DNA of 64,000 nucleotides from Gemmatimonadota bacterium. GTDB taxonomy: Bacteria; Gemmatimonadota; Gemmatimonadetes; Gemmatimonadales; GWC2-71-9. Below the pieces are notes generated by a model. That model was not told where the DNA came from. It saw nothing but the letters and a program-made list of their open reading frames with translations, and ran no database searches. The position numbers and the translations under genes were made by a program. The stretch lies in assembly GCA_036679645.1 (NCBI GenBank), contig JAZDCY010000060.1, positions 9,247-73,246 on the forward strand. Direction: 5' to 3'. This document shows positions 19,005-30,548 of the stretch, one piece after another (the first letter of the stretch is position 1; every line of letters starts with the position of its first letter).

Positions 19005-21053
19005 ATGATAGAGAGTCTCAAGCACAAGCCGCTCACCAAACGACCCGACCGCCTGACGTTTCCCGGTCGGGTGCTCTTCCTCGTGGACGATGCGCTGCTC
19101 ATGCGGCGTCAGCTGGAGGGAGGAGACCTTCCCTGGCCGCCCGGTGCGGCGTTGCGAGACAACATCTCCACCGACGAGATCACGCCGGCCTACATCTGTT
19201 ACTACTACGACGACACACTCGGTGATTTTCCCTACCTGGGATTGCAGGCGGGCGCCGAGTTCCCAGTCGAGCGCGAAACCGTACGAGCGGGCGGGTTCGT
19301 CTGTTCCGTCAGCGGCAAACGCCGGGGGAAAGGGTCCTCGCGCGAGCAATCGCCGTACGCAGAGATGTGCGCAGGCATCCAGTTGGTGATCGCGGAAAAC
19401 ATCGAGCGCATTTACCGGGAGAACTGTCAGAACCTGGGCATGCTCACGAGCACGGATTTTGGGTTGATCGGCCGCGTGCGCGCCGGCGAGGCCATTCCGC
19501 TGACCGACTTCACCGCCGGCGAAGGCGACATCACGCGGGGCGTTATCGAGTATGGCGGTCTCTTCCACTACAATGTGGCGCGTCTGCAGGGCAGGGTATC
19601 CGTGCCGGAGGTGGACACCCCCGCCCGTCCAATGACCCTTGCGGAGAAGATCATCGCGCGTCACTGGGTGACCGATCTCGCGCACGACACGGTGGGTGTG
19701 CCGCACGTGAAGCCCGGCGACGAGGGGTTTGTGCGGACGGACATCCGCTTCAGCCACGAATACGTCACTCCCATGGCTGCCATCTTCTGGGAAGATCTGG
19801 TAGGGACGGACGAGCGCGTGGTCGATCCGGATTCCATTTTCATGTTCCGCGATCACCTCACGTTCCTCGACCTCGTGATGACCGAGGCGCGCAAGGCCGA
19901 GGGACTCTTGGATGTCGCCCTCGAGCTGAAGGCAAAGCAGGAGGATTTCTCAGCCAAGCAGGGCATCACGCTCTACGGCGAGTTGGGCCGCCAACTCCAG
20001 GGGCGCCACGGTATTCCCACCGGATCCGAGGCGATATGCCACTCGAAGATTCTCGAGCAGCACGCCCTTCCCGGCCATCTCATTGTGGGAACCGACTCGC
20101 ACACGCCGCACGCCGGTGCGATGGGCGCGATTGCTTTTGGCGTGGGCACGACGGCAATCTTCAATTCGTGGCTCACCAAGGACGTGCGCATCAAGGTGCC
20201 GCCCTCGGTGCTCGTGCGTGTGACCGGGGACAAGCCGCCGGGGATTACCGCGAAGGACTACATGTTGCAGATCCTGCGGCATCCGTACGTGAGGGATGGG
20301 CACGCGATCGGCAAGGTCGTGGAGTACGCGGGCGATGCGGTGCGAGGGCTGGATATCGATGAACGTGCCACGATGACCAACATGGCGGCGGAGGTCGGCG
20401 CGTTCACCGGTGTCATCAGGCCGGATGAGAAGTCGATCGAGTTTCTCTCTCGTGAACGCGGTGTGGATCCGGAAAAGGTGCGGCCATTGCTGGAGGGGCT
20501 CTTCTCAGATGCAGATGCCGAATACGAGAAGATCATTGATATCGACGCGGGCGCGTTGAAGCCGATGGTCGCCTTGCCCGGTGATCCCGGAAATGGGCTC
20601 TTCATTGATGAACTCGGCGACCGGGTGAAGGTCGACATTGCCTATGCGGGCTCGTGCACCGCCGGCAAGAAATCCGATATGGACATGTACGCCGCCGTGT
20701 TCCGTGATGCGCTGGACCGTGGCGAGCGCGTGCACGCGGACGTGAAGTGCTTCATTCAGTGCGGATCACAGGAGGTGAAACGGTATGCGGAAGAACGGGG
20801 CTACCTCGAGATCTTCGAGAAGGCCGGCGCCGTTTTCATCGAGCCTAGCTGTGGGGCGTGCATCAACGCCGGGCCCGGCGTGTCATACGACACTGACACG
20901 GTGACGATCAGCGCCATCAACCGGAACTTCCCCGGCCGGTCCGGTCCGGGACGGCTCTACCTCGCTAATCCCTATACGACGGCGGCCTCCGCAATCGCTG
21001 GGTACATCACTGCCTGGGAGCCACGGAAGGTCGGTGCCGGGGTCTCGGTCTAG
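19005..21053 (+). CDS. Aconitase-family dehydratase with fused small (swivel) and large subunits; likely 3-isopropylmalate dehydratase
   Basis: N-terminal NISTDEITP and GKGSSREQ (LeuD-like), then MTLAEKI, GTDSHT, GSCT, PSCGAC, NRNFPGR (LeuC-like, three Fe-S Cys). Confidence 0.85.
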   Translation: MIESLKHKPLTKRPDRLTFPGRVLFLVDDALLMRRQLEGGDLPWPPGAALRDNISTDEITPAYICYYYDDTLGDFPYLGLQAGAEFPVERETVRAGGFVCSVSGKRRGKGSSREQSPYAEMCAGIQLVIAENIERIYRENCQNLGMLTSTDFGLIGRVRAGEAIPLTDFTAGEGDITRGVIEYGGLFHYNVARLQGRVSVPEVDTPARPMTLAEKIIARHWVTDLAHDTVGVPHVKPGDEGFVRTDIRFSHEYVTPMAAIFWEDLVGTDERVVDPDSIFMFRDHLTFLDLVMTEARKAEGLLDVALELKAKQEDFSAKQGITLYGELGRQLQGRHGIPTGSEAICHSKILEQHALPGHLIVGTDSHTPHAGAMGAIAFGVGTTAIFNSWLTKDVRIKVPPSVLVRVTGDKPPGITAKDYMLQILRHPYVRDGHAIGKVVEYAGDAVRGLDIDERATMTNMAAEVGAFTGVIRPDEKSIEFLSRERGVDPEKVRPLLEGLFSDADAEYEKIIDIDAGALKPMVALPGDPGNGLFIDELGDRVKVDIAYAGSCTAGKKSDMDMYAAVFRDALDRGERVHADVKCFIQCGSQEVKRYAEERGYLEIFEKAGAVFIEPSCGACINAGPGVSYDTDTVTISAINRNFPGRSGPGRLYLANPYTTAASAIAGYITAWEPRKVGAGVSV

Positions 21054-22489: not shown

Positions 22490-22585
22490 ATTGATTGCTT
22501 GCGCGCCCTAATTGACCGGTTCCGATTCCGAATTGATGCGTTCCATCCCCACATTGACGTTGGCTTGCTTGACGCCGGCTATGTT
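22490..22585 (+). promoter_or_regulatory. Phased direct repeats and -10 element upstream of small lipoprotein 1
   Basis: ATTGAY at 22490, 22511, 22532 and 22553 (exact 21-bp period), TTGCTTG at 22565, then 8 nt, then TATGTT (22580-22585). Confidence 0.6.
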
Positions 22586-22639: not shown

Positions 22640-22852
22640 ATGTTGAAGAACAAGATTCGGGCGATCGTGCCCATCGTCGCATTGGTCCTCGTTGCAGCCT
22701 GTTCGGATTCCACAGGCCCCGGGGCGCCGGAACTGGCGGAGATTCAGCAGGAGAGTCCGGAACAGGATCAAGCGAATAGAATACGGGGCATCGACACCGA
22801 CACGAAGCGGAAGACCCCGCTCGATCAAGAGCGCGAAGACAGGGAACGGTAG
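22640..22852 (+). CDS. Small lipoprotein 1 (70 aa)
   Basis: GGAGG RBS at 22627; MLKNKIRAIVPIVALVLVAA-C lipobox; short polar mature part; similar to 25166..25357. Confidence 0.75.
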   Translation: MLKNKIRAIVPIVALVLVAACSDSTGPGAPELAEIQQESPEQDQANRIRGIDTDTKRKTPLDQEREDRER

Positions 22853-22864
22853 CTAGCGGAGAAA

Positions 22865-22950
22865 GCCGGCATACCCTTATCCATCCCACCTGCCACGGAG
22901 CAGTGCCGGCCTTAGGGGGTGTACAGCGAAAACGCTGTGCGCTCCCTCCT
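22865..22950 (+). ncRNA. Candidate structured 3' element (two hairpins), copy 1
   Basis: Stem GCCGGCAT(22865)/GTGCCGGC(22903) encloses CCATC...CGGAGCA; then TTAG and hairpin GGGGGTGTACAGCG-AAAA-CGCTGTGCGCTCCC followed by TCCT. Confidence 0.5.
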
Positions 22951-22997
22951 CCCGTTTTGGGGTGCGCGGTGAGCTGTGCGCGGGTGGGTGGGGGGGG

Positions 22998-24881
22998 TTA
23001 CCCGGCTTGGTGACGTAGAGATTCGTGTCGCTGCTCGAGGCGCTTTCGCTGACCGGGAGTGAGGAGTTCCGACAAGACAACCTCGCGGAGCAACGCGGCC
23101 TCGACGAAATACCGATCTCCATCGAACGAGACGATGTGATGCCGCTCGAGTTGAGCGAGTGCATCTTCGATATCTGAGGTTGCGATATCCAGCAGTCCAC
23201 TCAAGACGTCGGGTTGAACTTCGGAACCGCCGACGCAGGTCCCGACGAGCACGTCCTTTGCGGTGGCACTGAGCAGTTGGACGCGCTCCATGGTAGCCGC
23301 TTTCACTAGCTGCGGGATGTCGAACGGCACCGGAGTTTCGAGCGTGACGTTCTCGAGCGGCCACACAAGCGCCTCGCCACGCAGCGATGAAACCTCGGCG
23401 AGTCCACGCAGCAAGGACACGGTAAGGAACGGATCGCCTCCGGTCTCGAAATCCACGCGCCGCGCGAGGCGGGCCAGTTGCTCCTCCCCGTCACACCAGG
23501 GCGCCATCTCTTGCACGAGCGCGCGGACCTCGTCACCCGAGAACAGCTCGAGCTCGACGGTTCCCCCGGCTAGGCGTCTGCCGACATCCCCCAGGAGCTT
23601 TGTGAGCCCGGTGTATTCACCCTTGGCGTCTTCGCAAGTGCTGAGCACGACGAGGATGGGGCGACCGATAGCCGTGCCAATGGCGCCTCGCAACGCCGAC
23701 AACGTGGCTTCGTCGGCCAGGTGTGCGTCGTCGATGACGACCGCGAGCGGAGTTTCCTCGGCGATCGCCTCGAATAGCCCGCCCAGGGCATTCCCAATAT
23801 CGGTATGGCCGAGCCCGGACATCGGCTCGAACCGTTCCGCCAATCGCGGGACGACCGACGCGAGCATGCGTAGAGCGGTCGGATCGGTCGCGGCAAGACC
23901 CGGCGCATCGAACAGACCGCCTCGCATCAGCTGCCGCAGTGTGCTCCATGGTGTCCCGGGGTCGGTTCCCAGGGGATTGGCCAGCGCGATCATCCCACCT
24001 TCCAATCGCCACCGATTCACGCACTCCGACAGGAGCCGGGTTTTTCCTCGTCCGGCCAGCGCACTCACGACCAGCACGCGGGGACCTTGGGCAAGTGCCA
24101 TGGACAACTCGGTGAATGCGCGGTTGTGCTCCCGCTCCCGCCCCACGAGCGGTGGTTCCGCGTCGGTATGCACCAGCGATGCGCGCCGCCACCGACCTTC
24201 GCGAATCCGCTCGGCCAGGGCGCGCAGCTCCTTGCTGGGCGGCACACTGTACTCGCGCTCTATGTGCCGAGCGAAATCACGATACGTAATGAGTGCGCCG
24301 GAGGAGTCGCCGCTAAGCGCGGATGCGCGCATTTGCAGCCGTACGGCCGCTTCGGCTTCGGCATCGATACCGAGCGCCCGTTGGGCCACAGTCTGAGCGA
24401 CCTCGAACTCAGATGTCGAGAGCGCCTGCTCTCCGCTGTCGATCAACGAAGAGAGACTGCGGTTGCGGAGTCGCGCGCGCTCCTGCTCTAGCCACTGCTC
24501 GAACGCGGGCGCATCGGGAAGGCTCAGGCCGTCGAGGAACTCTCCGTCCCCTTCCCCGTCGCCGAGAGCATCCACGCGCAGTTGCTCGCCGCTCAGCGTG
24601 ATCGCGTCGCCGCGCGAAATGAGGCGCTTGGCGCCAAGTGCGGCCCGCAGCCGGCGCACGGCCTCGTTGAGTGAATGGCGGGCGCGGGCCTGGTCCTTTT
24701 CGGGCCACAACAAGCCCATGAGATGGTCGCGGGACCGTGTGTGCTGCGGCGAAAGTGCGAGATACGCCAATAACGCCACGTGTTTCCGCCACATGACGTC
24801 GGCCGCGGGCTCCTCGCCGTCCACCAGGACGGCCGGGGGCCCGAGGCATCTCATCTCGAGAGATCTGGGTTTCCCGAACAT
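22998..24881 (-). CDS. SARP/BTAD transcriptional activator with P-loop NTPase domain, copy 1
   Basis: wHTH (ALLAYLAL...SRDHLMGLLWPE...ARHSLNEAVRRLR), BTAD (FL.GL...DAPAFEQWL..ER), PLVGRERE, Walker A ALAGRGKT, Walker B VVIDDAH, TGGDPF. Start probably 24881 (track gives 24962). Confidence 0.85.
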   Translation of the reverse strand: MFGKPRSLEMRCLGPPAVLVDGEEPAADVMWRKHVALLAYLALSPQHTRSRDHLMGLLWPEKDQARARHSLNEAVRRLRAALGAKRLISRGDAITLSGEQLRVDALGDGEGDGEFLDGLSLPDAPAFEQWLEQERARLRNRSLSSLIDSGEQALSTSEFEVAQTVAQRALGIDAEAEAAVRLQMRASALSGDSSGALITYRDFARHIEREYSVPPSKELRALAERIREGRWRRASLVHTDAEPPLVGREREHNRAFTELSMALAQGPRVLVVSALAGRGKTRLLSECVNRWRLEGGMIALANPLGTDPGTPWSTLRQLMRGGLFDAPGLAATDPTALRMLASVVPRLAERFEPMSGLGHTDIGNALGGLFEAIAEETPLAVVIDDAHLADEATLSALRGAIGTAIGRPILVVLSTCEDAKGEYTGLTKLLGDVGRRLAGGTVELELFSGDEVRALVQEMAPWCDGEEQLARLARRVDFETGGDPFLTVSLLRGLAEVSSLRGEALVWPLENVTLETPVPFDIPQLVKAATMERVQLLSATAKDVLVGTCVGGSEVQPDVLSGLLDIATSDIEDALAQLERHHIVSFDGDRYFVEAALLREVVLSELLTPGQRKRLEQRHESLRHQAG

Positions 24882-25068
24882 TGTACGCAAGCCGCTGTAA
24901 TATCTCGTTTTGCGGTCAGATGTGGTACTAGACGTCCGGGTTGCATCTGGGTTGTGACTCATTCAGTAGAGCAATACGGGTGAAGTGATCGGAAAGATGC
25001 GAAGAAGGCGGAATGGCGAGAAGGGCGCTTGAGGGCGGGAATAGGTTAAATGGTTATACGACAGTGAG

Positions 25069-25121
25069 TTGACAGCAGTTGGCGGGGGATTGAGAGCTGC
25101 TTGAGGGGTGGTCCCTAGCTT
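25069..25121 (+). promoter_or_regulatory. SARP-box-like phased repeats and -10 upstream of small lipoprotein 2
   Basis: TTGAC 25069, TTGGC 25079, TTGAG 25090, TTGAG 25101 (10/11/11 spacing); last heptamer, then 8 nt, then TAGCTT (25116-25121). Confidence 0.62.
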
Positions 25122-25165
25122 TGCTTTCAGTAAGTGACGGCAATGACCTGCTCTGGAGGCGAACC

Positions 25166-25357
25166 ATGAAAGCCAAGCGCATTTTCCCCGCAATCGCGAT
25201 CACGCTGATCCTCGCTCTTTCTGCCTGCTCAGACGCTCTCGGGCCGACCGGTCAGAACCCAGAAGTCGCCACGGTGCTCGAGAACCAGGACGACTCCAGC
25301 CAGGACGCGCAGGGACAGCAGGGCAAGAAGCAGGATAACCCGCTCGAACAGCAGTAG
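25166..25357 (+). CDS. Small lipoprotein 2 (63 aa)
   Basis: GGAGG RBS at 25155; MKAKRIFPAIAITLILALSA-C lipobox; Q/D-rich mature part; divergent from the BTAD regulator. Confidence 0.78.
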   Translation: MKAKRIFPAIAITLILALSACSDALGPTGQNPEVATVLENQDDSSQDAQGQQGKKQDNPLEQQ

Positions 25358-25376
25358 GGATCGCTGAGAGGTTCTA

Positions 25377-25456
25377 CCGCCGGGAAGATCGACCATCTCG
25401 CCTCGGAGCAAACCGGCGGCCTAGGGGGCGCGGAGGGAAACCTCCCGCCCCTCCTT
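25377..25456 (+). ncRNA. Candidate structured 3' element (two hairpins), copy 2
   Basis: Stem CCGCCGG(25377)/CCGGCGG(25413) encloses CCATC...CGGAGCA; then CTAG and hairpin GGGGCG-C-GGAGG-GAAA-CCTCC-CGCCCC followed by TCCT. Confidence 0.5.
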
Positions 25457-25520
25457 CCTTTCCCCCCAACCCTTCCACACCACCCCCGGTGGGAGGGCGG
25501 AAAGGCGGAAAGAGTAGCCG

Positions 25521-26603
25521 CTATCTGCCGCCTCGCATCCGCTCCACCACCATATTGCCCATGTCGGAGGTCGCGATGCCGCTGCGGGCGTCGGCCGATT
25601 TCACCTGACCGCTCGTGAGGAGGTCCGCGATCGCGTCGTCGATGCGTTTGGCGCCGCTCGTCTCGCCAAGGAAGTCGAGCATCATGCCCGCGGCCGAGAT
25701 GGCGCCGAGTGGGCAGGCGACGTTTTTGCCGGCGTACTTGGGTGCCGAGCCGTGGATCGGCTCGAACATCGACGTCTGACCTGGGTGGATGTTCCCTGAG
25801 GCGGCGATGCCCATGCCGCCCTGGAGCATGGCGCCCAGGTCGGTGATGATGTCGCCGAACAGGTTCGTGGTGACGAGCACGTCGAACCACTCGGGGTTCT
25901 TGATCATCCACATACAGCACGCGTCGACGTACGCGTGGTCCTGCTCAACCTGCGGGAAATCCTCCGCGACTTGCGCGTACACACGCGTCCAGAGGTCGTG
26001 GGGCCGTATGGCGTTCGCCTTGTCGACAAGCATCACACGCGCCTGGTGTCCGTTGCCTTTTTCCTTCGCGCGTCTCTCGGCGAGCTCGAAGGCGTAGCGC
26101 GATGCCCGCTCACAGCCCTTCCATGTGTACACGCCGTTCACGAGGGCAACCTCGTCGGGCGTGTTCTTCTTCAGGTGCCCGCCGATCTGCGCATAGAGTC
26201 CCTCGGTATTCTCGCGGACGACGATGAAGTCGATGTCGTCGGGTCCCTTGCCCTTCAACGGACAGAGGTGCTCGCTATAGAGCTTGATGGGCCGGAGATT
26301 GATGTAGAGATCGAGGCCGAATCGCAGTCCCAGAATGACCGATCGCTCGACCAGCCCAGGCTCGACGTCCGGATGCCCGATGGCGCCGAGCAGTACGGCG
26401 TCGAGCGTGCGCCACTCGTCGATGACCGAGTCGGGGACCAACTCCCTGGTCTTGAGGTAGTAGTCGCCGCTGTAGGGGTAGTCGACCAGTTCGTAGGTGA
26501 ACCCCTCGAGCTTGGCTACAGCCGCGAGGGCTTTGAGCGCTTCGTCGGTGACCTCGGGTCCAATACCGTCACCGGGGAGGACCCCGATCGTGTAGGATGC
26601 CAT
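25521..26603 (-). CDS. leuB: 3-isopropylmalate dehydrogenase (beta-decarboxylating dehydrogenase family)
   Basis: GDGIGPEV, ERSVILGLRFGLDLYINLRP, RENTEG.Y, VDKAN, NLFGDIITD, FEPIHGSAPK motifs. Confidence 0.82.
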   Translation of the reverse strand: MASYTIGVLPGDGIGPEVTDEALKALAAVAKLEGFTYELVDYPYSGDYYLKTRELVPDSVIDEWRTLDAVLLGAIGHPDVEPGLVERSVILGLRFGLDLYINLRPIKLYSEHLCPLKGKGPDDIDFIVVRENTEGLYAQIGGHLKKNTPDEVALVNGVYTWKGCERASRYAFELAERRAKEKGNGHQARVMLVDKANAIRPHDLWTRVYAQVAEDFPQVEQDHAYVDACCMWMIKNPEWFDVLVTTNLFGDIITDLGAMLQGGMGIAASGNIHPGQTSMFEPIHGSAPKYAGKNVACPLGAISAAGMMLDFLGETSGAKRIDDAIADLLTSGQVKSADARSGIATSDMGNMVVERMRGGR

Positions 26604-26621
26604 TGCGCGTGTGGTAGTGGG

Positions 26622-27278
26622 TCAGAAGCCGAAGGAGAGCCCAATCGAGATGACCGGATAGTACTTGAACAGATTGAGATCGTCCTCCGCGGCGGCCACT
26701 TCCCGGTCGAGGTCGGCCTGGAAGCCTGGCGTCTGGGAGATCGGACCGTTCGCCGTGAACGTCACGTCGGGCTGTCCCTGAAAGGCGACGCCCAAGTCGA
26801 GGATGAACCCGATCCGTCCGCTGGCGATGTTCCCCCATCCGATGCCGATGTAAGGCGCGATGTCGTTGTTGACGATCGTCCCGGTCAGGCTACCGACATC
26901 TGTTCCCGCGTAGGTGGAATCCCCGATATCAACCGTTCCCGTGAATACGCCGGTGATGTCGAGATCCGGTGAGGAGAACAAGACGCCGCCGCTCACGCGG
27001 AACTGACCCGCGAGAAAGAGGTCGACGAATCCGACGAACTGCGGTGAGGGAAGGTCGACCGTGAAGTCGATGTCCGAGATCGTGAGATCGATATCCGATG
27101 GGAAGATGCCACCGCCGACGCGCAAGGTGACCCGATCGTGCACCGCGATGCCGATGTCCGCACCCAATCCCAGCGTGCCGACGTGGGGCGCCACGCCAAA
27201 GCTCGGGCCTTGGGCCAGGATTGGAGCGGGCGCCGTCGCCACAGCGAGGCACGCGAAGAGGGTCAGCAGGCGTGTCAT
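26622..27278 (-). CDS. Outer-membrane beta-barrel protein
   Basis: Signal peptide MTRLLTLFAC..., GTLGLG, PYIGIGWG, amphipathic strands, terminal YPVISIGLSFGF. Confidence 0.75.
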   Translation of the reverse strand: MTRLLTLFACLAVATAPAPILAQGPSFGVAPHVGTLGLGADIGIAVHDRVTLRVGGGIFPSDIDLTISDIDFTVDLPSPQFVGFVDLFLAGQFRVSGGVLFSSPDLDITGVFTGTVDIGDSTYAGTDVGSLTGTIVNNDIAPYIGIGWGNIASGRIGFILDLGVAFQGQPDVTFTANGPISQTPGFQADLDREVAAAEDDLNLFKYYPVISIGLSFGF

Positions 27279-27346: not shown

Positions 27347-29242
27347 CTAATCTAATCGCGTGCGTGCGCCGGACCACTCTGCGAAACGTGTCTCGAAGCG
27401 CTTGCGGCGGCTGGGTGTCAGGAACTCGCCGCGTATTACCGCGGCAATGATCGGAGCTTCCAAGTGGAACCGATCTCCGTCGAACACCACGAACCGGTGC
27501 CGTTCGAGTTCCTCGAGACCACGATCTACGGTGGCCGCGTCGAGTTCCGTGAGAGCGACGATCGCCTCGGGGTCGATGACGCGCGGCCCGATCGTCGCCG
27601 CGACCAGAACGTGACGCCCCTGCTCGGAAAGCTCGTTTGCCCGAGCAATCGTCATGAGCCGGACGAGTTCCGGAACGTCGAATGGAACGGCTGAATCGAT
27701 CGTATGACGTGGAGGCGGCCACTGGGTCGCGTCCTCGCGGAGCGCTGTCACGCGGCGGAGACCCTGCAACAACGTGGTTGCGAGGAGTGGGTTCCCGCTC
27801 GTCTCGTACCAGACCCGGCGTGCGAGCCGGTCGCGCTGCTCATCGTCGGGGCACCAATCAGCCAGCAGCATGACGAGCGACGTGATATCGGCCTCGGTAA
27901 GGGGACCGAGGCGAACGATCATTCCCGGCAGACGACGGCCGATTTCCCCGACCAATCCGATGCGGCTACCTTGTGCGGTCCCGCCGTCCGCGGCGGCAAC
28001 GGCCAGCAGCACCGGCTCGTCGCGTAGCTGGCCCATGGCTGCCTGCCAGGCTCCCAACGTGCTGGCGTCCGCCCAATGCCCGTCGTCCACGACGATCGCC
28101 ACCGGCTGCTCTTCGGCGACCGCTCGGATGAGCGACACGAGTGCCGTGGCGACGTGTGCGTGATCCAGCGCCGGCGAGGGATCCGCTCGTTCGCACAGCT
28201 CCGGTATGACGCTCGCGAGCACCGCGAGGGCGGCGGGATCTGTTCCGGCGAGCCCGGGGGCGTCGAGTAGACCTCCGCGGGCCAGCGCGCGCAACGTGCT
28301 CCACTCGGCATCACGATCCTGTTCCAGCGCGCGACCGACCGCGAGCAAACCGCCGTCGAGTTGCCAGCGATTCACGCACTCGCTCAGAAGACGAGTCTTT
28401 CCACTTCCGCTGTCACCGAGTACGGCGGCGGTGCGGCTCGCTCCCCGAAAAGCCTCCCCTACGAGCCGGAAGATCTCCTCGTGCACGGCGGCCCGGCCGA
28501 CGAGCGGGGGATCCACATCCGGCGACGCCACCGAGCGTCGGCGCCAGCGCCCGTTGCGGATGCGCTCCGCGAGCGCCGTCAGCTCGCGGCTGGGATCCTC
28601 GGCGAACTCCGCCTCGAGACGGTTGGCGAATTCGTGGAACCCGCGTAGCGCACCGGCAGCATCCCCCGCCAAGGTCGCGGCGCGCATCCGCAACCGCGCG
28701 GCCGGCTCGGAGTACGGGTCGAGCGCAAGCACGCGGGCTGCCGCCTCGTGCGCCTCGGCAAACCGCAGCGCGGCCAGCTCCCGCTCGCCGGTCCGCAACA
28801 AGGCCGAACTTGCCTGGGTCCGATGTCGCCCGCGCTCGGCCATGACCCAATCCTCAAAGGCCGGGGCGTCGTCGAGGGTCAGGCCCTCCAGGAAATCCCC
28901 GCGCGTAAGCGCCCGCTCGAGATCGTCCGCGTCGACGGAAAGTGCGGTGTCGTCGAGCGTGAGTGTGTCGCCCTTCGAGCGGATTCGGTCTGTCCCGAGT
29001 CCGGAGCGGAGTCGCCGCACCGCCTCGTTGAGTGAGTGGCGCGCCTTCGTCTGGTCCTTTTCGGGCCAGAGGAGCCCGAGCAGGTGTTCCCGCGACCTGG
29101 TCCGGTCGGGCGAGAGCGCCAGGTAGGCCAACAGCGCCACGTTCTTGCGCCATAGCACGTCCGTGGGCGGCTCCGCTCCGTCGATCCGGATGACCGGAGG
29201 GCCGAAACACCGGAGCTCCAGGGTCGGCAACTGATCGGGCAT
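27347..29242 (-). CDS. SARP/BTAD transcriptional activator with P-loop NTPase domain, copy 2
   Basis: Start MPDQLPTLELRCFG; collinear paralog of 22998..24881 (LLWPEKDQ..ARHSLNEAVRRLR; GDSGSGKT; IVVDDGH; TSGNPL). Confidence 0.85.
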   Translation of the reverse strand: MPDQLPTLELRCFGPPVIRIDGAEPPTDVLWRKNVALLAYLALSPDRTRSREHLLGLLWPEKDQTKARHSLNEAVRRLRSGLGTDRIRSKGDTLTLDDTALSVDADDLERALTRGDFLEGLTLDDAPAFEDWVMAERGRHRTQASSALLRTGERELAALRFAEAHEAAARVLALDPYSEPAARLRMRAATLAGDAAGALRGFHEFANRLEAEFAEDPSRELTALAERIRNGRWRRRSVASPDVDPPLVGRAAVHEEIFRLVGEAFRGASRTAAVLGDSGSGKTRLLSECVNRWQLDGGLLAVGRALEQDRDAEWSTLRALARGGLLDAPGLAGTDPAALAVLASVIPELCERADPSPALDHAHVATALVSLIRAVAEEQPVAIVVDDGHWADASTLGAWQAAMGQLRDEPVLLAVAAADGGTAQGSRIGLVGEIGRRLPGMIVRLGPLTEADITSLVMLLADWCPDDEQRDRLARRVWYETSGNPLLATTLLQGLRRVTALREDATQWPPPRHTIDSAVPFDVPELVRLMTIARANELSEQGRHVLVAATIGPRVIDPEAIVALTELDAATVDRGLEELERHRFVVFDGDRFHLEAPIIAAVIRGEFLTPSRRKRFETRFAEWSGARTRLD

Positions 29243-29396
29243 ATCGGGCGAGAATATGCCCCGCAGTCCGGTCGCCCGCGAGCGACCGGGACAGGGGCGC
29301 CGTAGCGGCTGGCGGTGACGTAGTACAGACTTAGACTCATGTACCGGCCGCGCTCGGCCGGTCTCCGACCCATTTCCCGTCGCGAGGGACCGCCGC

Positions 29397-30548
29397 ATGG
29401 CTCCGACCCTCTCTGATACCGAGTTGCTGGCGTGCCTGGTAGCGTTCGACACGACGAGCAGCAACAGCAATCTTCCGCTGATCGACTTCGTATCCGACTA
29501 CCTGGATCGGCCCGGTATTCGTCTGACGCGAAACCGGTCGCCGGAAGAGACGAAGTCGAACCTGGTGGTCGAGCTTGGGCCGGAGGCGGGCGACGAGCGG
29601 GCGGGCCTCATGCTCTCCGGACACACTGACACGGTGCCCGCGGAGGAGCCCGAGTGGCGCACGCCGCCGCATCAACTCACCACGGTGGACGGGCGGCTCT
29701 ACGGCAGAGGCAGCAGTGACATGAAGGGATTCGTGGCGCTGGCCATCAACACCGCCGCCACGCTCGATCCCAACGCCATGAAAGCGCCTCTCGCGCTCGT
29801 GCTGACGTACGACGAAGAGGTCGGCCTACTTGGCGCCAAGCAGTTTGCGGAAACTTGGCCGGCGTCCGCCCGTCTCCCGAAGAACACGGTCATCGGGGAG
29901 CCGACACGGCTCGAGGTAGTACGCGCGCACAAGGGCTTCGTGGATCTCCGGTTCATCTTCAGCGGTGAGAGCGCCCACAGCGGATACCCGCATCTGGGGC
30001 GCAATGCCATTGAGCCGGTGGGGAAGGCGATATCCGCGCTCGTCGAACTACGACGGTTGCTCGAGGCTGAGGGCGGTCCACACGCAGATGAGTTTCCGGA
30101 TGTGCCGTACGCTCCGCTCAACGTTGGGCGTGTCGTCGGGGGTGTCGCCACGAACGTCGTGCCGGACAGATGTGTCCTCGAGATCTCAACCCGACCCCTG
30201 CCCGGGATGCAGCCCTCGGATCTCGCGGAGCGCATCGAGCGGGTCGTTCGCAACGCGGCAGATGGAGAACCGCTCGAGGTGGAGACGATGAGCAGCAGCC
30301 CACCCCTGCTGCTCGCCCCCGATGCGGAGGTCCACATCGCCGCACGTGAAGCGGTGGGACAGACCGAGGACAAGGCCGTCTCGTATGCAACGGACGGCGG
30401 GTGGTTTCAGCAGATGGGCTTCGAGTGCGTGGTTTGGGGCCCCGGCGATATCGCCCGCGCGCACAAGCCCAACGAGTTCATCGGTATCGACGAACTCCAG
30501 CGTGGGCGTGAAGTGCTGGATCCCTTCGTTCGGCGTTTCTGCTTCTAG
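29397..30548 (+). CDS. argE: Acetylornithine deacetylase (M20 family)
   Basis: SGHTDTVP, GRGSSDMKG, YDEEVG, GEPT, AHKG, AHKPNE motifs. Confidence 0.88.
   Translation: MAPTLSDTELLACLVAFDTTSSNSNLPLIDFVSDYLDRPGIRLTRNRSPEETKSNLVVELGPEAGDERAGLMLSGHTDTVPAEEPEWRTPPHQLTTVDGRLYGRGSSDMKGFVALAINTAATLDPNAMKAPLALVLTYDEEVGLLGAKQFAETWPASARLPKNTVIGEPTRLEVVRAHKGFVDLRFIFSGESAHSGYPHLGRNAIEPVGKAISALVELRRLLEAEGGPHADEFPDVPYAPLNVGRVVGGVATNVVPDRCVLEISTRPLPGMQPSDLAERIERVVRNAADGEPLEVETMSSSPPLLLAPDAEVHIAAREAVGQTEDKAVSYATDGGWFQQMGFECVVWGPGDIARAHKPNEFIGIDELQRGREVLDPFVRRFCF

Follow-up and report, generated by a model that had tools for sequence, protein, structure and literature searches.

Two copies of a two-hairpin element, each lying behind an open reading frame (ORF) for a micro-lipoprotein, were recognized in a 64,000-nucleotide (nt) stretch of a Gemmatimonadota genome (contig JAZDCY010000060.1; the whole stretch is called the window here, and its 4.05-Mb genome G000). 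They belong to a family of predicted structured RNAs of about 95 bases, with 13 copies in 12 genomes from six genera of a single Gemmatimonadota family. Every copy adjoins a gene for an AfsR/SARP-like regulator with winged helix-turn-helix (wHTH), BTAD and AAA domains, and a promoter-like pattern lies upstream of all 13. From these sequences, there is about an even chance that the element is a regulator-induced small regulatory RNA (sRNA) pairing with G-rich target RNAs through an exposed CCYACC motif; in the genus of the window it is best read as derived from a 3′ untranslated region (UTR).

The element copies were confirmed at 22865-22950 (copy 1) and 25377-25456 (copy 2), and no other clear copy is present in the 4.05-Mb genome. 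On the + strand, each forms a pair of hairpins (z = -5.1 for copy 1 and -2.2 for copy 2), while folding of the - strand is not notable (z = -0.8 and -1.3, respectively). Their parts, with P1 denoting the first stem, are as follows.

22865..22872, + strand: copy 1, 5′ arm of P1, GCCGGCAT
22885..22890, + strand: copy 1, conserved unpaired motif CCCACC (predicted unpaired probability 0.90)
22891..22902, + strand: copy 1, reduced inner hairpin TGC-CACGGA-GCA, with homology to UCCUC/GAGGA inferred from position
22903..22910, + strand: copy 1, 3′ arm of P1, GTGCCGGC
22914..22958, + strand: copy 1, terminator-like stem 2 (15 bp, AAAA loop, 22914-22947) with a weak pyrimidine/U tail
25377..25383, + strand: copy 2, 5′ arm of P1, CCGCCGG (core GCCGG at 25379-25383)
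25397..25402, + strand: copy 2, motif variant CTCGCC, the inner hairpin being largely lost
25413..25419, + strand: copy 2, 3′ arm of P1, CCGGCGG
25424..25461, + strand: copy 2, terminator-like stem 2 (12 bp, GAAA loop, 25424-25452) with a pyrimidine tail

Copy 2 lies 21 nt past the stop of an ORF paralogous to that before copy 1. It is also the best non-self match in the genome (E = 0.38 genome-wide) to a profile built solely from copy 1 and its orthologue in G001, another genome of the same genus; given this position, the likeness of the two copies goes beyond chance. The G001 orthologue is a syntenic third copy behind the orthologous ORF, and its stem 2 is wholly different in sequence yet paired. 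DNA contigs checked for sequence variation over the element yielded no variants, and none of the sequencing runs listed as carrying it was of RNA, which has no bearing on expression. A strict terminator scan calls neither stem 2 in the window; the tails of both are weak. The preliminary description of this DNA had reported a shared two-hairpin element at both sites, and its coordinates and two-hairpin fold are upheld, but three of its details were misassigned. The supposed compensatory changes in stem 1 between the two copies are not such, as the core GCCGG/CCGGC is identical in both and the flanking pairs alone differ; real compensation occurs in other genera only. What had been described as a C(T)TAGGGGG linker is in fact 3-4 nt long, the GGGGG forming the 5′ arm of stem 2, where it pairs with CTCCC/CCCCT. 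The CCATC loop is peculiar to the genus, the family-wide feature being CCYACC with an invariant GGA. As for the purine tetraloop of stem 2, AAAA and GAAA are present in the window copies as stated, and it is not conserved in the family.

The first nine homologues were spotted by eye. A model made from the three copies of the genus only (R1) recovered five of these nine at E ≤ 0.034 among 84 regulator loci, the same run also returning a variant (L292) and one false match; applied with filters off to 12 chosen loci, it recovered all nine (E from 5e-4 to 0.73) along with five other matches (E 0.34-1.2). A model of 12 sequences (R2) found a member on which it had not been trained, in genome G436 (46 bits, E 1e-5), where a promoter, a lipoprotein, the element and a convergent regulator end follow one another. 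The variant at L292:1068-1158 (- strand) was excluded from every count of 13: it belongs to a divergent lipoprotein gene with the same promoter, shares the P1 palindrome and the GAAA stem 2, and has another inner hairpin and no CCYACC; its regulator clusters with that of the window.

Across the family, the P1 core is paired in all 13 copies, with a C-G pair replaced by U-A in the three copies of one genus (g53) and a G-C pair replaced by A-U in the two copies of another (g49); three of the five core pairs are invariant. In the alignment, which was fitted to the model, 86% of the cells pair, and shifting the register lowers this to 24-53%. CCYACC stands on the 5′ side of the internal loop; 10 of 13 copies have it unchanged and the others have CUCACC, CUUACC and CUCGCC instead, with a predicted unpaired probability of 0.65-0.99 across members. 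The motif varies by C-to-U and A-to-G changes only, and pairing with GGUGGG is preserved throughout. The inner stem that follows is UCCUC/GAGGA in nine copies and has one mismatch in a tenth, under variable caps that often form a C-rich loop; its want of covariation suggests a constraint on the sequence itself. GGA is present in 13 of 13 copies. Stem 2 is a strong hairpin whose sequence varies freely, with six or more U within 2 nt in five of the 13 copies, and folding z-scores across the family range from -1.7 to -5.6. In the three g53 genomes, P1 starts 11-13 nt past the -10 box and a U run follows stem 2, which together predict a primary RNA of about 95 nt.

Conservation of this kind is also consistent with the module of P1, motif and inner stem being a protein-binding RNA rather than a base-pairing sRNA; it would then serve as a decoy, or give feedback as a ligand of either the regulator or a protein that binds C-rich RNA. 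P1 is conserved in sequence too, with three pairs that never vary, as are GGA and the inner stem; the association with a single regulator family is strict, and target searches found no target. We nevertheless regard such a role as rather unlikely. The spacing between motif and stem varies from 0 to 15 nt, which fits a seed better than a rigid protein site, and no candidate protein was identified.

The R2 searches scored limited candidates, and their outcome is to be read as not found rather than absent. Neither 40 further regulator-bearing genomes (one plain hairpin at 28 bits) nor another 10 genomes (one match of 24.5 bits, L381, left uninspected) yielded a convincing member, and the same holds for a 150-genome sample of the phylum beyond the genus, where one 32.8-bit match lacked the architecture. 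Weak matches at L377, L379, L380 and L350 were inspected and left uncounted. No convincing member was found outside the taxonomic family. Exact-pattern scans likewise yielded none beyond the lineage: genome contigs gave 0 and later 75 matches, one with the full architecture; metagenome contigs gave 82 stretches, with the full architecture in none of 83 matches screened; and viral sequences gave 0 matches. Two early pattern matches were judged to be chance, and a loose pattern run over 401 genomes was uninformative, its matches being probably mostly coding. In Rfam 15, the whole window had 0 matches, and at E ≤ 10 the segment 22500-25600 had chance matches only, outside the element; ten homologous loci gave a single match of 25 bits against a gathering threshold of 45 bits. 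The element is not dispersed in the manner of repetitive extragenic palindromes, since each scoring genome other than G000 has one clear match. An ordinary genome-wide repeat, raised in the preliminary description as the finding that would undo it, is argued against by the two clear copies of G000, and no Rfam family claims the element.

The element is part of a compact unit, whose other features in the window are these.

22491..22585, + strand: predicted activator-dependent promoter 1, with TTGA at 22491, 22512, 22533 and 22554 (21-bp period)
22640..22852, + strand: micro-lipoprotein ORF 1, 70 amino acids (aa), lipobox-like VAAC
22998..24962, - strand: wHTH (Trans_reg_C)-BTAD-AAA_16 regulator gene, convergent with unit 1 and divergent from unit 2
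25069..25121, + strand: predicted promoter 2, with TTGA at 25069 and 25090 and a half-repeat at 25101
25166..25357, + strand: micro-lipoprotein ORF 2, 63 aa, lipobox-like LSAC, a paralogue of ORF 1

Promoter 1 also has a half-repeat at +11, a 20-bp spacer and a -10-like TATGTT at 22580-22585, and promoter 2 a 20-bp spacer and a -10-like TAGCTT at 25116-25121. The general pattern consists of TTGA(C) repeats 21-22 bp apart, a half-repeat at +11 and TAnnnT exactly 20 bp past the last full repeat. Close homologues of the regulator occur in 84 of 401 genomes of the family; 87 downstream flanks were examined, 81 of them longer than 700 nt and hence usable. The pattern is found in 33 of these 81, oriented towards the 3′ end of the regulator gene, and in none on the opposite strand (0/81); all 10 RNA-bearing flanks among the 81 carry it. 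By the rule of the script used, the 33 promoter-bearing flanks comprise 20 with the lipoprotein only, 8 with the RNA only, 2 with both and 3 with neither. A matrix trained on 33 promoters from other genomes finds five sites in G000, promoters 1 and 2 among them, and 0 in a shuffled genome. The other three matches, C7:19692(-), C4:73372(-) and C89:2951(+), precede a small Cys-rich ORF, a 286-aa ORF and a signal-peptide ORF, respectively, and are possible further members of the regulon. Direct repeats over the -35 region in helical phase, the 20-bp spacer and the adjacent wHTH-BTAD regulator are all features of a SARP/AfsR-type promoter. The regulator encoded at 22998-24962 is presumably an activator, and this promoter is probably the one that it activates.

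As the preliminary description had it, both window copies stand downstream of micro-lipoproteins, each following a lipoprotein-like ORF of 63-70 aa. In the family at large, a micro-lipoprotein ORF precedes only five of the 13 copies. The remaining eight, from four genera, have none, and the RNA has apparently been kept without the protein in these. Two of the ORF-less leaders hold apparent ORF remnants, one a Shine-Dalgarno (SD) sequence without a start and the other a start directly joined to a stop, which suggests that the ORF was lost and the RNA retained. A quick regulator tree of 38 proteins places the five ORF-less loci and the one ORF-plus locus that it covers in one group of 12 rows (support 88) and the window's regulators in another (support 99), and losses occur in both groups. 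All five tails of six or more U belong to ORF-less copies. As far as sequence goes, the eight copies thus have what is looked for in an sRNA gene, namely a promoter pattern and a terminator without a lipoprotein ORF. The suggestion that the element is a functional RNA and more than a terminator is supported here, in that homologues from six genera keep P1, with compensation, and the unpaired motif, and that eight of 13 stand alone behind a promoter-like site. A role as single-stranded DNA, the other option entertained at that stage, is unlikely in view of the strand-specific folding, the G-U pairs, the U-tails and the upstream promoter-like site.

The same arrangement bears on a cis-acting role, in which a bidirectional terminator with an upstream hairpin would stabilise the mRNA of the lipoprotein or of the convergent regulator, the ORF-less copies being relics. 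The element does always lie at a 3′ end, with 12 of 13 copies facing the 3′ end of the regulator gene or a remnant of it, stem 2 is a strong hairpin of variable sequence, and the two leaders with ORF remnants fit as well. A 3′-end structure of this sort is unlikely all the same: the eight ORF-less copies, in four genera, have kept both promoter and motif, folding favours the strand of the promoter, copy 2 sits on the divergent side and faces an unrelated gene, and many lipoprotein loci do without the element.

A base-pairing sRNA fits best with the covarying scaffold, the seed-like motif, the hidden UCCUC, the promoter-like site and the terminator of the ORF-less copies taken together. CCYACC, predicted to be single-stranded within a structure whose P1 shows compensatory changes, has the properties of a conserved seed. 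The regulator would bind the TTGAC repeats, as their position implies, and switch on one short transcript that stem 2 would end. In the genus of the window, the RNA would be the 3′ UTR of the micro-lipoprotein mRNA and might act either within the intact mRNA or once released from it by cleavage. On the target RNA, CCYACC would provide the toehold and, where the inner stem is intact, the UCCUC arm could exchange its own GAGGA for the SD-type GAGGA of the target, resulting in a block of translation. C-rich single-stranded seeds are able to work without chaperones in the 6C sRNA (PMC6486639).

A number of observations weigh against such an sRNA. The covariation proposed for the homologues is there, as two compensatory events in P1, but it is modest against shuffled controls: of 500 shuffles, 13 equal its score and 203 its pair count. 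These two events are the only ones, the members are related to one another and the alignment had been fitted to the model; support from covariation is thus real but thin. The C-to-U and A-to-G changes seen in CCYACC are also the commonest mutations, and the motif served in part to choose the members. The window's own genus has a reduced UGC/GCA inner stem and has lost the UCCUC arm, copy 2 being mostly without an inner stem, and these copies, with their weak U-tails, may be degenerate or retargeted. Exact seed complements are not enriched in five genomes (71 sites versus 92 in a reversed control), and 66 non-self exact-seed sites revealed no cross-genus mRNA target, the one orthologue pair shared being within a single genus. 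The RNA is patchy, as 20 of the 33 promoter-bearing flanks have the lipoprotein without it. Binding by the regulator, finally, follows from position only.

Further searches for a pairing partner included the regulator's own mRNA, on which no pairing site common to the members was found. For each of the 13 loops, pairing with start regions is 1.2-3 kcal/mol stronger than with the interior of coding sequences, a difference obtained without a composition control and not counted here, and start-region scans of G000 give target lists that cannot be validated. Folding back onto the element's own ribosome-binding site (RBS), in the manner of type I toxin mRNAs, was rejected: it beats the shuffled RBS in only two of five cases (2/500 and 7/500), and the own RBS ranks at 8%, 15% and 44% among 1,321 candidate gene starts. 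For copy 2 alone, where 13 pairs form (2/500 shuffles) with a predicted pairing of 0.73 in the full transcript, such a fold-back may hold.

One exact seed-complement site is in 16S ribosomal RNA (RF00177). It lies in the GAGGAAGGUGGGG stretch, which we take to be part of the 30S head at about 1175-1190 in E. coli numbering, and gives rise to the idea that the RNA pairs with 16S rRNA and thereby influences the assembly or activity of ribosomes. The seeds of all 13 copies pair with this site, with a mean of -18.1 and a worst value of -12.2 kcal/mol, and only two of 4000 random windows do as well; an invariant target would, moreover, account for the invariant inner stem and the wobble-only variation. 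Yet 337 genomic sites score as well or better, so that a site of this quality is expected with P about 0.06 in 1,500 nt, the size of 16S rRNA, and 0.17 in the 4,500 nt of all rRNA. The idea is post hoc, no copy is perfectly complementary, with a linker of 1 to 5 nt, and pairing is weaker for the copies of the window (-14 to -16). Most of this region is, besides, helical in the mature 30S subunit. Pairing with 16S rRNA is therefore improbable. It is tempting to speculate, with an equally slim chance of being right, that the RNA of an AfsR-like STAND regulator invades this universally conserved stretch by means of its CCYACC toehold and UCCUC and so throttles ribosome assembly or translation, micro-lipoprotein and RNA being interchangeable outputs of one stress switch. 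If true, this pairing would be an unusual mode of ribosome control, for which the evidence is weak.

The three copies of the window's genus, as read from their sequences, show a 5-bp pairing between the loop and stem 2 with two covarying positions, as would a pseudoknot switch (antiterminator, riboswitch or ribozyme of the hepatitis delta virus (HDV) type) in which the 5′ arm of stem 2 would be bound by the loop. Across the 13 members, cognate pairs are no better than non-cognate ones, ranking among the top two of twelve in only two of 13; the window has no gene downstream on the same strand, the HDV core order of P1.1, J4/2 and P2 is not present, and Rfam offers no match. A switch of this type is very improbable. 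Hardly any weight can be given to binding of CsrA/Rsm-type proteins, which the preliminary description had tentatively read from the GGA. This triplet does occur in every copy, within a CACGGA loop in copy 1, and G000 encodes one CsrA, but CsrA is found in only two of 12 other genomes tested (11 with the element and one with the variant), and four genomes at least 91% complete, the same-genus genome among them, have no match. Only one GGA per RNA, furthermore, is conserved in the loop region, and it is paired in 10 of 13, where several looped ones would be expected. The csrA gene of G000 sits beside a FliA-like sigma gene. The CCTCCT tentatively likened there to an anti-SD sequence lies mostly inside stem 2, the anti-SD-like UCCUC of the family being in the inner stem.

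Both micro-lipoprotein ORFs are predicted to have a signal peptide and a lipobox-like cysteine, and they are paralogues (31% identity, E 7e-7) that match no Pfam or NCBIfam family. A profile search yielded 14 proteins, the window's own two included, of which two are labelled by source as Gemmatimonadetes/Gemmatimonadales; a 50% library holds nine representatives, and JGI contigs gave no confirmation of the family. At least 20 further loci (flanks L010, L011, L291, L300, L313 and L320-L369) have a lipoprotein-like ORF, mostly of 52-83 aa, behind the same promoter, with a conserved signal, an AC(S/A)xxTxP start and an unrelated mature part. ARAGORN calls a tRNA-SeC in G000; the stops of the lipoproteins are TAG and their frame distance to the element is not fixed. 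The regulator at 22998-24962 has a paralogue at 27347-29470 (48% identical), and it and its G001 orthologue end just past the aligned region, most homologues extending about 80-100 aa further at the C-terminus. The unit is split in G001: one locus combines lipoprotein and element with what is left of the 3′ end of the regulator gene, and the other has the full regulator with the 3′ part of stem 2 only and apparently inserted DNA alongside (flank of the regulator orthologue in L045; L039:3100-3180). Facing copy 2, a gene of the Iso_dh family (25521-26603) ends convergently at 25521. The ORF at 19005-21053 is of the single-chain aconitase family, with the C-terminal (swivel) domain first, and lies near this gene and a Memo-like gene. 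Between an outer-membrane-protein-like gene and the Iso_dh gene (- strand), the 12-mer TGACCCACTACC at 26613-26624 recurs at the L045 junction and may be due to chance or represent the end of a mobile element.

The closest parallel to the unit is AfsR-afsS of Streptomyces, whose regulator also combines winged helix, BTAD and ATPase, with a small target unit adjacent to it (PMC11301090; bioRxiv 10.64898/2026.09.02.748808). The afsS promoter has direct repeats overlapping the -35 region and a 20-bp spacer to the -10 (PMC11301090), and the 21-22-bp period corresponds to the 22-bp repeat of AfsR/afsS type (bioRxiv 10.64898/2026.09.02.748808). Unlike that system, the present one is from another phylum and known from sequence alone, its ATPase matches AAA_16 with no TPR family detected here, and the output is a micro-lipoprotein and/or a non-coding RNA instead of AfsS. 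The 6C sRNA of Actinobacteria is likewise a short hairpin RNA of high-GC hosts with a conserved single-stranded C-rich stretch able to seed G-C-rich pairing (PMC6486639). It carries two C-run hairpin loops, however, whereas CCYACC lies in an asymmetric internal loop of an RNA tied to one regulator locus and without an Rfam match.

The cuckoo RNAs of Alphaproteobacteria, which reportedly have CCUCCUCCC loops, share an anti-SD-like pyrimidine motif, copy 1 happening to carry CCTCCTCCC at its 3′ end; here, part of CCTCCTCCC is paired within stem 2, the family does not conserve it, and repeated hairpin modules and an Rfam match are both wanting. Like 3′-UTR-derived and dual-function sRNAs, the family shares a terminator with an mRNA in five of 13 copies and has its own promoter-like site in eight, but differs in that one promoter type drives protein only, RNA only or both, depending on the genus. 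A Rho-independent terminator, finally, resembles stem 2 in being GC-rich and variable in sequence, with six or more U in five of 13, but would account for the 3′ half of the element only, and the tails of the window copies are weak. Literature searches, which did not cover subscription journals, found no published description of the RNA family. The unit would work like AfsR-afsS with a micro-lipoprotein and/or a C-rich sRNA as output, and the RNA belongs to no catalogued family.

This work defines a structured RNA family that has no Rfam model in a widespread and mostly uncultured phylum, and it provides a concrete candidate regulon for BTAD-ATPase regulators outside Streptomyces, which comprises a predicted binding site, a promoter and a choice of two outputs. 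The occurrence of one promoter type with the lipoprotein alone, the RNA alone or both may represent a natural series for the passage from a 3′ UTR to a free-standing sRNA.

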